DNA from: Escherichia phage vB_EcoM_RZ
Length of the DNA stretch: 64,000 nt
Reading direction: 5' to 3' (one strand)
Sequence record: MW598459
Under the pieces are notes generated by a model. That model had not been told where the DNA came from and did not search any database. It saw nothing but the letters and a program-made list of their open reading frames with translations. Made by a program: the position numbers and the translations under genes. Below are positions 14,875 to 16,030 of the stretch, one piece after another (within the stretch, counting starts at the first letter, position 1; each line of letters starts with the position of its first letter).

Positions 14875-15582
14875 TTATTCCTTGCTTTGTTTCAAGTATT
14901 CTATCGCGGTTTCTAATGAAGCAATATTGTCTTTAAACATGCCCAAGCCTATATTGCATTTTGAGCATAAAATACCCCGGACTTTACCAGTTGAATGACA
15001 GTGGTCTACATTGAACCAAGTGCTTTTTGATAAAGAAGTCGAATTGTTTGTTAGTTTTATTTTACAAATTTCACAATACGGAGTATCCTCAATTAACTTC
15101 AAAACGTCGCGCTTTTTCATCTTTATGGAATGACTATATGGCAAGTCCAGTGATTGAGTATCTCTTGCTTCTTTACCACAGGAATCTGAACAATATTTTT
15201 GAGTCCTATTCGTAGCCGTATACTTAGTATCACACACAGGACAAATACGCTCTTCTTCAAATATCCCACCACCCTGGCATTTAACGGAACAAAATTCATG
15301 GTAACCAGTAGCAAATGTGTGATAGTTAACAGGTTTACCGCACTTACATAAAACTTTTCCTTTTATATCATGTAAAATACGATAACAGACCTCATTATAT
15401 GGGTGTTGGTCTCTTTTACCTCCTTGACAATGCAGTGCTTCTGTTCTAAAGACATTTGCTTCTTCTGGATATTTTTCCCAGAATTTTTTGGCAAATTCTA
15501 AATCATTTTTAAACAAATTACCGTTAAGACGATTCGGGTTCTTAGTTAAAAGATTTTCTTCAATAAATTGTTTTAAGTTCAT
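14875..15582 (-). CDS. Endonuclease VII-like His-Me finger nuclease with Cys-rich N-terminus (putative freestanding homing endonuclease)
   Basis: C-terminal [24 protein letters not shown] parallels DHDHELNGPKAGKVRGLLCNLCN of gp49 in this window; track start is GTG, ATG at 15582 preferred. Confidence 0.65.
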   Translation of the reverse strand: [235 protein letters not shown]

Positions 15583-15588
15583 GGAGGT

Positions 15589-15613
15589 ATTATAAGTCAC
15601 ATATTTTAAAGCA
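15589..15613 (-). promoter_or_regulatory. Putative T4 middle promoter (MotA box TGCTTTA, 12 nt, TATAAT)
   Basis: Minus strand TTTTGCTTTAAAATATGTGACTTATAAT immediately upstream of the nuclease gene. Confidence 0.45.
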
Positions 15614-15636
15614 AAAAGGCCCGAAGGCCTTTTATT
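15605..15636 (-). terminator. Rho-independent terminator
   Basis: AGGCC-CGAA-GGCCT hairpin followed by T-run on the minus strand, directly after the upstream ORF stop. Confidence 0.55.
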
Positions 15637-16030
15637 TGAATCGAAGCTGCTCTAACATTTTAATAGCTTGTAGACGTCCGGCTTCAGTTTTAACCGTAAT
15701 AATAACATCACCGCCGGTAACAACGATATCCTCTTTTGATTCCTGTTCGGTTATTTCAGAATCACATTCCGGGACTTCTTCAAAATATTTAAATTCATCA
15801 CCAAAAATAAGACCGGTTCCATTACGACTATGGAAAGAAAACCCAGTTCCATCGATAGTACTAAATTCCGTAACAACATTTGCTTCCATCTTAGTGACTG
15901 AAAACTCTTTGGTAGTAACCAAATCAATGATAGAGGTTCCTTGTTGGTTCAAAATGCTACCAGGCATACCAACATGTTTAAGGAAGCCATCTAAATCTTT
16001 AATGTGATAACTCTTTCCAATTTTAAACAT
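15632..16030 (-). CDS. Hypothetical protein (about 133 aa from internal Met)
   Basis: ORF 15632-16207 trimmed to the Met preceded by SD GAGGA; the longer form overlaps the lipoprotein gene. Confidence 0.45.
   Translation of the reverse strand: MFKIGKSYHIKDLDGFLKHVGMPGSILNQQGTSIIDLVTTKEFSVTKMEANVVTEFSTIDGTGFSFHSRNGTGLIFGDEFKYFEEVPECDSEITEQESKEDIVVTGGDVIITVKTEAGRLQAIKMLEQLRFK

Follow-up and report, generated by a model that had tools for sequence, protein, structure and literature searches.

A probable free-standing homing endonuclease gene of the DHHRN family in the 5′ leader of gene 39 of Escherichia phage vB_EcoM_RZ

Many of the free-standing endonuclease genes of phage T4, the seg and mob genes, lack promoters, rely on those upstream and have initiation regions of poor quality, and such genes also carry promoters for the genes downstream of them (PMC2988022). 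A different catalytic family, for which F-CphI of cyanophage S-PM2 is the prototype, is recognized by conserved D, H, H, R and N residues (D40, H41, H43, R54 and N62 in T4 endonuclease VII, here Endo VII) flanked by CX2-4C and CX2C pairs (PMC6083498). Fang et al. (2018) divided the Endo VII-motif proteins into a resolvase clade, in which the motif is N-terminal, and an endonuclease clade, in which it is C-terminal; gp6 of phage VR7 was placed in the endonuclease clade and predicted to be a free-standing homing endonuclease of the DHHRN family (PMC6083498). Here we analyze the homolog of VR7 gp6 in Escherichia phage vB_EcoM_RZ, a Gaprivervirus (the VR7/SP18/VR26 group of T-even phages), within the full 64,000-nt stretch of record MW598459, which is called the window below and is numbered from 1. 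The open reading frame (ORF) is probably a free-standing DHHRN-family homing endonuclease gene, situated in the 5′ leader of the essential gene 39, which encodes the topoisomerase large subunit. Since Fang et al. made the prediction for VR7 gp6, the homing interpretation is already in print for a homolog, and the cassette is a good example of an already described, F-CphI-like kind of element rather than a new kind. The details added here are a captured promoter with a predicted leaderless start, a putative replacement promoter embedded in the ORF, and a hotspot at the 5′ end of gene 39.

The C-terminal part of the product is an Endo VII-type nuclease domain, as the first-pass annotation of this DNA had proposed from a His-Me motif. 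Residues 165–231 match Pfam Endonuclease_7 (PF02945) at 65.2 bits against a cut-off of 23.6 bits (E=5.1e-18), and several PHROG "endonuclease VII" families match as well. The catalytic residues and the four zinc cysteines (Table 1) are invariant in 10 of 10 full-length homologs; across 62 homologs they are invariant except for C206 (at least 90%), and they align with those of gp49 and F-CphI. An AlphaFold2 (AF2) model (pLDDT 89) has the beta-beta-alpha-Me fold, with strands at residues 191–194 and 201–205 and a helix at 207–215.

The catalytic core is 54% identical to that of F-CphI (E=2e-12). Like the ORF product, F-CphI has its Endo VII-type domain at the C-terminus, with the D, H, H, R and N residues and the CxxC...CxxC pairs conserved, and is encoded by a free-standing gene of a T4-like phage beside an essential or conserved gene. 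F-CphI is shorter (142 aa, amino acids), lacking the N-terminal region of about 160 aa and its two extra Cys4 sites, and it targets psbA beside a group I intron, whereas in the present group the association is with the 5′ end of gene 39 and there is no intron; biochemical characterization exists for F-CphI only. The nearest solved structure is that of Hpy99I (PDB 3fc3) and not that of the T4 Endo VII resolvase, as judged both by Foldseek with the model (1.6e-5 and 0.047, respectively) and by phmmer against PDB sequences (E=7e-8 and E=0.3). Hpy99I is a bacterial type II restriction enzyme of the beta-beta-alpha-Me class, a sequence-specific duplex cutter paired with a methylase, and its C-terminal CNxGLGxFKDNxxxLxxxIEYLK is nearly identical to that of the ORF product. 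Its N-terminal domain differs, and the ORF has no associated methylase; self-protection of the carriers would instead come from divergence of the target site.

The true Endo VII resolvase, gp49, is conserved in T-even phages. The window encodes its own copy, outside the element, and the paralogy to it claimed in the first-pass annotation survives as a weak alignment of the two cores (tblastn E=0.011). T4 Endo VII belongs to the same Pfam family and has the same zinc-stabilized His-Me core, but there the catalytic domain comes first, at the N-terminus, with a dimerization domain behind it. The ORF product has the reverse domain order, is 235 aa long and is polymorphic among relatives, unlike a gp49 ortholog. 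The position of its motif (aa 165–231 of 235) and the presence of a separate gp49 in the same genome are those of the endonuclease clade. The exact protein is public as YP_010650870.1 under the name "endonuclease VII", and a sequence identical to it is contained in BFVD; the name implies a resolvase and should be corrected, since the product is more probably a selfish site-specific nuclease.

The N-terminal half is cysteine-rich, as had been noticed at first pass, and C79/C81/C98/C102 and C114/C117/C131/C135 are invariant in the alignment of full-length homologs, giving three Cys4 zinc sites in the protein overall. The AF2 model is confident over the protein (pLDDT 88–89) and has a helical start ahead of two Cys4 zinc modules. 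When aa 1–160 were used in an exhaustive HMMER search, seven proteins were found that match at least 120 of the 160 residues (E<=2.5e-20), and two separable modules, aa 56–105 and aa 109–145, were resolved. The first of these (window about 15268–15417) recurs in phage proteins of 400–720 aa in PHROG 3339/559, which carry annotations as homing or HNH endonucleases and in some cases have DUF559 (Vsr-like) or DUF7487; it may be a DNA-binding module shared by several homing-endonuclease families. The second is a CxxC...YCSxxC ribbon that resembles DUF2116, MYND and FCS fingers and occurs in tandem arrays in many proteins. By analogy with other modular homing endonucleases, the zinc modules would provide DNA recognition.

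The ORF is kept functional under strong purifying selection. Between the window allele and those of VR26 and TH15, dS (synonymous divergence) is 0.62–0.68, dN (nonsynonymous divergence) is 0.03–0.04 and dN/dS is 0.05–0.06, and the constraint is seen in the N-terminal and catalytic halves alike.

Comparison of the gene 39 flanks with those of close relatives, a check proposed at first pass, found the ORF absent from most of them and revealed precise junctions. The cassette had been credited with a middle promoter and a terminator of its own. Both signals are present, a terminator-like hairpin and the MotA-type promoter TGCTTTA-N12-TATAAT, the latter being the sole exact match in the 64 kb (0.03 expected), and the window encodes a MotA ortholog (Table 1). 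However, they are the resident signals of gene 39. The series AAAAGGCC-TTCG-GGCCTTTT, TGCTTTA-N12-TATAAT and ACCTCCAT is identical in seven related phages: the carriers VR26 and VR7, the empty-site phages SP18, DK-13, VR25 and 212, and P479, which has a GIY-YIG gene instead. For TH15 the comparison is limited to 39 nt (97%) because the record begins inside the hairpin/promoter element. In the four empty-site phages the promoter is followed by ACCTCCAT-ACACAAGAGGAAAGATG, which comprises the leader, ribosome-binding site (RBS) and start codon of gene 39. Since the hairpin and promoter are base-for-base identical in these ORF-less relatives and directly precede gene 39 there, they are not the cassette's own. 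A simple consensus terminator scan did not flag the hairpin, which is called terminator-like from its fold and from direct reading.

The cassette starts immediately past the ...TATAATACCTCCAT of the resident promoter and ends 6 nt ahead of the gene 39 ATG, and the ATG of the ORF consists of a resident "AT" and the first inserted "G". Only 6 nt (ACCTCC) separate TATAAT from this ATG, in agreement with the earlier remark that there is almost no leader. Sigma-70 promoters usually begin transcription at the seventh base after the -10 hexamer. With the insertion about 6 nt past the -10 box, the ATG therefore lies at the predicted transcription start, and the message is predicted to be leaderless, to lack a Shine-Dalgarno sequence and to be weakly translated. 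The metagenomic contig L010, which encodes a homolog of 74% identity, has another hairpin and spacer in the same layout (ATGCTTTA-N12-TATAAT-ATTCCC-ATG). The open-reading-frame listing begins the ORF earlier, at GTG 15600 inside the promoter spacer, but the conserved ATG is the start in every full-length homolog of the 10-homolog alignment. The VR26 homolog (L001 3376–4134) is given as 252 aa in RefSeq, from a start upstream of the conserved ATG, and the 252-aa cluster members in the protein collection have the same start call; because this reading takes in the promoter, the hairpin and the end of 39.1, the VR26 start is probably over-extended.

Two further readings of the upstream region were considered. 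A mobile regulatory cassette of the PeSL-like kind was rejected, as the hairpin and promoter unit is single-copy in the window with up to 3 mismatches allowed. A sigma-70 scan of the region gave 5 matches against 6.5 in shuffled sequence, no more than expected, and no extra promoters are therefore claimed.

A gene universally present at this position in relatives would have spoken against homing; carriage is instead polymorphic in both genera in which it was found. Among the best-matching Gaprivervirus records, the carriers are VR26 and TH15 (92–93% aa identity) and VR7 (49%) only, while the homolog is absent in SP18, DK-13, VR25, VR20, 212 and about 15 others. Krischvirus is the sole other home of the family in the phage collection, with a 44% homolog upstream of gene 39 in 13 of the 59 records and none in RB49, Phi1 and JSE. 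Full-length metagenomic homologs amount to only eight clusters among 5.8 billion proteins, and in both contigs examined the homolog is directly upstream of gene 39. All full-length homologs checked, in the two genera and the two contigs, have this location, and in Gaprivervirus and Krischvirus the gene is present or absent at a fixed site with precise junctions, as is expected of a homing gene.

The same slot can also hold a different nuclease. In P479 it is occupied by a 265-aa Seg-like gene with GIY-YIG, NUMOD3 and I-TevI DNA-binding domains (L006 2862–3659, minus strand), inserted 12 nt into gene 39, and P479 has its own divergent gene 39 block. In other genera, records list HNH or GIY-YIG genes beside the gene 39 5′ end. 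The start of the P479 gene reuses the gene 39 RBS and first four codons (ATGATGATTAAT). Residues 1–26 of P479 gp39 match those of L010, which carries the Endo VII-type gene instead; the two gene 39 5′ regions are only 71–90% identical at the nucleotide level. In L010, moreover, gene 39 is directly followed by a 275-aa ORF at the T4 mobA position (3664–4491), with an HNH-like motif (HHIIP...N...EH..AH) seen by eye, so that gene 39 would have endonuclease genes on both sides.

In the carriers of the window type, the ORF is accompanied by a foreign 5′ portion of gene 39. From nt 1 to about nt 1135, gene 39 of these phages is 57–83% identical per 60-nt window to that of SP18-type phages, or about 70% overall (69–70% to SP18, DK-13 and VR25; 69.8% to DK-13). 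The boundary near nt 1135 is sharp, and the last ~700 nt are 93–100% identical. Within the carriers RZ, VR26 and TH15 the block is 97–99% identical; the best non-carrier matches reach only 77–79% (P479, Dhakavirus Bp7 and IME281), and the donor lineage is therefore unsampled. Outside the block the relationships are reversed. RZ is nearest to the empty-site phage DK-13, with 97.5–99.2% over 39.1, 39.2, goF, cef and the RB69ORF005c-like gene and 97.6% from the 3′ part of gene 39 through the rIIA.1 gene, whereas its identity to VR26 and TH15 is 85–94%. With a DK-13-like backbone and a carrier-like block, RZ therefore looks like a recipient of the ORF together with the 5′ part of gene 39. This flank incongruence is consistent with co-conversion but does not prove it. 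A similar mosaic is seen in Krischvirus, where gene 39 of JK32 is 56–98% (mostly 56–86%) identical to that of RB49 over the first ~720 nt and 93–100% thereafter.

The smallest divergent tract is that of VR7, which has the 49% homolog, and it suggests where the nuclease acts. Gene 39 of VR7 differs from that of the empty-site phage SP18 at 18 of the first 60 nt, but is 97–100% identical over nt 61–240 and 88–98% thereafter. The differences lie in codons 3–19 and are mostly silent, while codons 20 to 28 (the last compared at codon level) are identical. For example, CTC TCG GAC GTC GAG CAT changes to TTA AGC GAT ATT GAA CAC, and CGT TCC to CGC AGC. Such a pattern is expected of an immunized target site or of a very short conversion tract. 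The recognition or cleavage site is likely to lie in the first ~60 nt of gene 39, which encode the conserved N-terminal motif LSDxEHxxKRxGMYIG of GHKL topoisomerases.

Insertion of the cassette moves the gene 39 promoter ~720 nt away and takes away its RBS. Two candidate substitutes are found in the 3′ end of the ORF, a Shine-Dalgarno-like AAGGA and a second MotA-type match (Table 1). The latter is one of 7 matches to TGCTTYA-N11-13-TANNNT in the 64 kb, where 1.75 are expected. Five of the seven lie on the minus strand, as do the genes examined here (2.8–19.5 kb and 50.7–53 kb). Relative to the gene 39 ATG, an equivalent match begins at -51 to -55 in each of the six carrier lineages that come from MotA-type phages (RZ, VR26, TH15, VR7, L010 and L013), some with only 45–50% protein identity, and the resident promoter of the empty-site phage SP18 starts at -50. 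We therefore propose the embedded match as a replacement promoter for gene 39. No embedded MotA-type match was found in the Krischvirus copy of the ORF, and RB49-type phages have neither a motA ortholog nor a middle-promoter consensus (PMC1524935).

A captured promoter and a poor start of its own give the ORF the layout described for the T4 seg and mob genes. The likeness extends to the intergenic promoterless cassette on an upstream phage promoter, the poor translation initiation, the embedding of downstream-gene signals in the endonuclease ORF and the co-conversion of flanking markers (PMC2988022). MobA already targets gene 39 (PMC2988022), and P479 has a seg-like gene in the slot of the ORF. 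The catalytic family differs from both GIY-YIG (seg) and HNH (mob), and mobA is between 39 and 60, whereas the ORF is 5′ of gene 39. An ATG at the predicted transcription start, as in the ORF, is a case that the review does not describe (PMC2988022). The first-pass annotation had put the ORF downstream of gene 39, in the hotspot where T4 carries mobA and the gene 60 split. In the direction of transcription the ORF instead comes immediately before gene 39, in the 39.1/39 slot of the shared minus strand and hence away from that position, and gene 39 is unsplit here.

Homing of the cassette could then proceed as follows. In a mixed infection, the nuclease would cut an allele that lacks the endonuclease gene, at or close to the first ~60 nt of gene 39, with the N-terminal zinc modules recognizing the site and the beta-beta-alpha-Me domain cleaving it. 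Recombinational repair off the carrier genome would copy in the endonuclease gene and a stretch of the donor gene 39, and the carrier allele, diverged at the target site, would be immune. The captured middle promoter would start transcription at about the A of the ORF ATG, yielding a leaderless, weakly translated message, and expression of gene 39 would be kept by the MotA-type match and RBS in the last ~60 nt of the ORF.

Several observations weigh against this interpretation. Because T-even phages recombine freely, a mosaic block beside a nuclease gene is no proof that the nuclease caused it. Both promoters and the leaderless start are consensus matches read with the usual spacing from the -10 box to the start, and the embedded match overlaps the conserved protein motif DNIASLxxAIxYL, so that coding constraint may explain part of its conservation. 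The Krischvirus phage G37-3 (L016 1744–3567) has the carrier-type gene 39 allele without the ORF, and the linkage of ORF and block is therefore not absolute. Its 5′ allele is 88–100% identical to that of JK32 per 60-nt window, mostly 95–100%, behind an RB49-type leader; the endonuclease gene could have been lost precisely, or a crossover could have fallen among the first codons. Furthermore, between RZ and the carriers VR26 and TH15 the ORF is ~11% diverged (88.8% nucleotide identity), while the adjacent gene 39 block differs by 1–3%, and the cassette and block therefore have partly separate histories, recombination having occurred between the two as well. Over its last 60 nt the ORF is 95–100% identical to VR26 and TH15, which points to a recombination breakpoint near the ORF 3′ end and to several co-circulating endonuclease alleles. 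Both the G37-3 allele and this difference in divergence are compatible with homing, although ordinary recombination acts here too. A literature search turned up no experiments on the RZ protein, VR7 gp6 or VR26 gp006; for DHHRN-family members in coliphages, Fang et al. (2018) was the only source it found.

The same observations could be taken to mean that the ORF is a passenger, shuffled with the 5′ part of gene 39 by ordinary recombination, and that its nuclease excludes competitors or degrades DNA instead. Mosaicism is common in this region, the RB69ORF005c-like neighbor is also present or absent between relatives, and the G37-3 allele and the unequal divergence of ORF and block fit such a view. 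We nevertheless consider it unlikely: a passenger would not be expected directly upstream of gene 39 in every full-length homolog examined, from two genera and two metagenomic contigs, nor would the part of gene 39 adjoining the ORF be the diverged part in RZ/VR26/TH15, VR7 and JK32 alike when compared with empty-site relatives. The unrelated homing-type GIY-YIG gene in the same slot of P479 and the grouping of the catalytic domain with site-specific cutters also argue for homing. Vertical inheritance of the ORF as an accessory gene of the gene 39 region, present ancestrally and deleted repeatedly, could explain why distant T4-like lineages have homologs of 44–92% identity in one and the same slot, as if long resident, and why purifying selection is strong. 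Repeated deletion would, however, have to recreate exactly the intact, compact promoter-leader-RBS-ATG arrangement that is identical in four empty-site phages. Moreover, the RZ backbone is nearest to an empty-site phage while its block is nearest to carriers, and the block is no closer to its own genus (70%) than to other genera (77%), all of which makes this history very improbable.

We give even less credence to the idea that the product is a second Holliday-junction resolvase, or a topoisomerase- or gyrase-binding factor with YacG-like ribbons acting on gp39 or host gyrase. The RefSeq name "endonuclease VII" and the location next to the GyrB-like gene 39 are in its favor, as are matches to Pfam YacG (PF03884), but the latter are sub-threshold (E=0.02, 14.9 bits against a cut-off of 25.5 bits) and amount to the generic resemblance of small zinc ribbons, short of every threshold; this ribbon also occurs in tandem in many unrelated proteins. 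The phage already has a normal gp49, from which the ORF product differs in its reversed domain order and in the absence of the C-terminal dimerization part, and in sequence it resembles Hpy99I and F-CphI far more than T4 Endo VII. Its nuclease residues are all conserved, and the constraint is strong.

A free-standing homing endonuclease gene thus accounts best for the locus, and the corresponding proposal of the first-pass annotation is upheld by the fixed-site polymorphism, the foreign flank, the incongruence, the GIY-YIG gene in the slot and the purifying selection. Its description of the family as unusual is not, since the DHHRN family (F-CphI) has been described and the VR7 homolog in the same slot was already predicted to be a homing endonuclease (PMC6083498). 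A more elaborate reading combines three propositions, and we advance the combination only tentatively, as one that may well fail in some part. It would hold that the cassette is expression-neutral: it would land exactly at the MotA-dependent transcription start of an essential gene, be translated from a leaderless mRNA and supply a replacement MotA promoter and RBS from its 3′ coding sequence, with Krischvirus copies lacking the promoter. It would also hold that aa 56–105 constitute a new NUMOD-like recognition block, common to large phage proteins with DUF559 and DUF7487, and that the nuclease targets the DNA stretch encoding KRPGMYIG, the GHKL motif that is universally conserved at the N-terminus of type II topoisomerases.

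While these findings leave current concepts unchanged and are of moderate specialist interest, the locus could be useful in several ways. The empty-site phage DK-13 and the occupied RZ form a clean natural before-and-after pair, and F-CphI, the only biochemically characterized DHHRN member, could gain a genetically tractable coliphage companion. The cassette also illustrates how an insertion between an essential gene and its promoter need not silence the gene. Finally, the 5′ end of gene 39 is a hotspot for at least two nuclease families, which helps to explain the mosaicism of topoisomerase genes in T-even phages.

Table 1. Features of the gene 39 region and related loci in the window (nucleotide positions) and of the ORF product (aa, residues)
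Feature	Position	Strand	Remarks
Putative homing-endonuclease ORF	14875..15582	minus	235 aa + stop; ATG 15582–15580, coding to 14878, TAA 14877–14875
Helical N-terminus	aa 1–50		AF2 model
Cys4 module	aa 56–105		C79, C81, C98, C102
Treble-clef/FCS-like Cys4 ribbon	aa 109–145		C114, C117, C131, C135
Endo VII-type beta-beta-alpha-Me nuclease domain	aa 165–231		Zinc ligands C170/C173/C206/C209; catalytic D193, H194, H196, R202, N210
Terminator-like hairpin	15614..15633	minus	AAAAGGCC-UUCG-GGCCUUUU (fold, 15633–15614); 8-bp stem, UUCG loop, T-run; resident after upstream gene, outside cassette
MotA-type middle promoter TGCTTTA-N12-TATAAT	15589..15613	minus	Resident promoter of gene 39
Second MotA-type match TGCTTCA-N13-TAGAAT	14898..14923	minus	Within ORF 3′ end; starts 55 nt upstream of gene 39 ATG; proposed replacement promoter
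AAGGA, Shine-Dalgarno-like, for gene 39	14879..14883	minus	In last ORF codons; replaces GAGGAAAG of empty-site phages (direct reading)
Gene 39, topoisomerase large subunit	14868..13036	minus	Unsplit, 610 aa (612 aa as listed from upstream TTG)
Foreign 5′ block of gene 39	13745..14868	minus	About 1.13 kb; co-inherited with ORF; read as co-conversion tract
First ~60 nt of gene 39, encoding LSDxxHxxKRPGMYIG	14809..14868	minus	Predicted (immunized) recognition/cleavage site
RB69ORF005c-like gene	about 16030–15632	minus	Directly upstream of hairpin; 132 aa from internal Met
39.1	16298–16038	minus	
39.2	16481–16305	minus	
MotA ortholog	2830–3435	minus	MotA_activ + MotCF domains above threshold; adjoins gene 52 (3866–5194)
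gp49, true Endo VII resolvase	52516..52989	minus	157 aa, catalytic domain N-terminal; outside the element

The C-terminal half of the ORF product also matches Endo VII-type ORFs within annotated DNA polymerase genes of T7-like Yersinia phages (for example, Yep-phi 13873–14232). Endo VII-type ORFs in DNA-polymerase group I introns were reported for the Yersinia phages Berlin and YpP-G by Fang et al. (PMC6083498). YpP-G is among our matches, and several of the records label the region just "DNA polymerase".

The gene order along the minus strand is 39.2, 39.1, the RB69ORF005c-like gene, the ORF, gene 39, small ORFs and rIIA. The RB69ORF005c-like gene is PHROG 622-like and has weak FRD2/goF-like similarity. 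A 191-aa version of it in the open-reading-frame listing overlaps 39.1 and is probably over-extended. This gene is present in RZ, SP18 and DK-13 and absent in VR26, VR7, VR25, 212 and P479.

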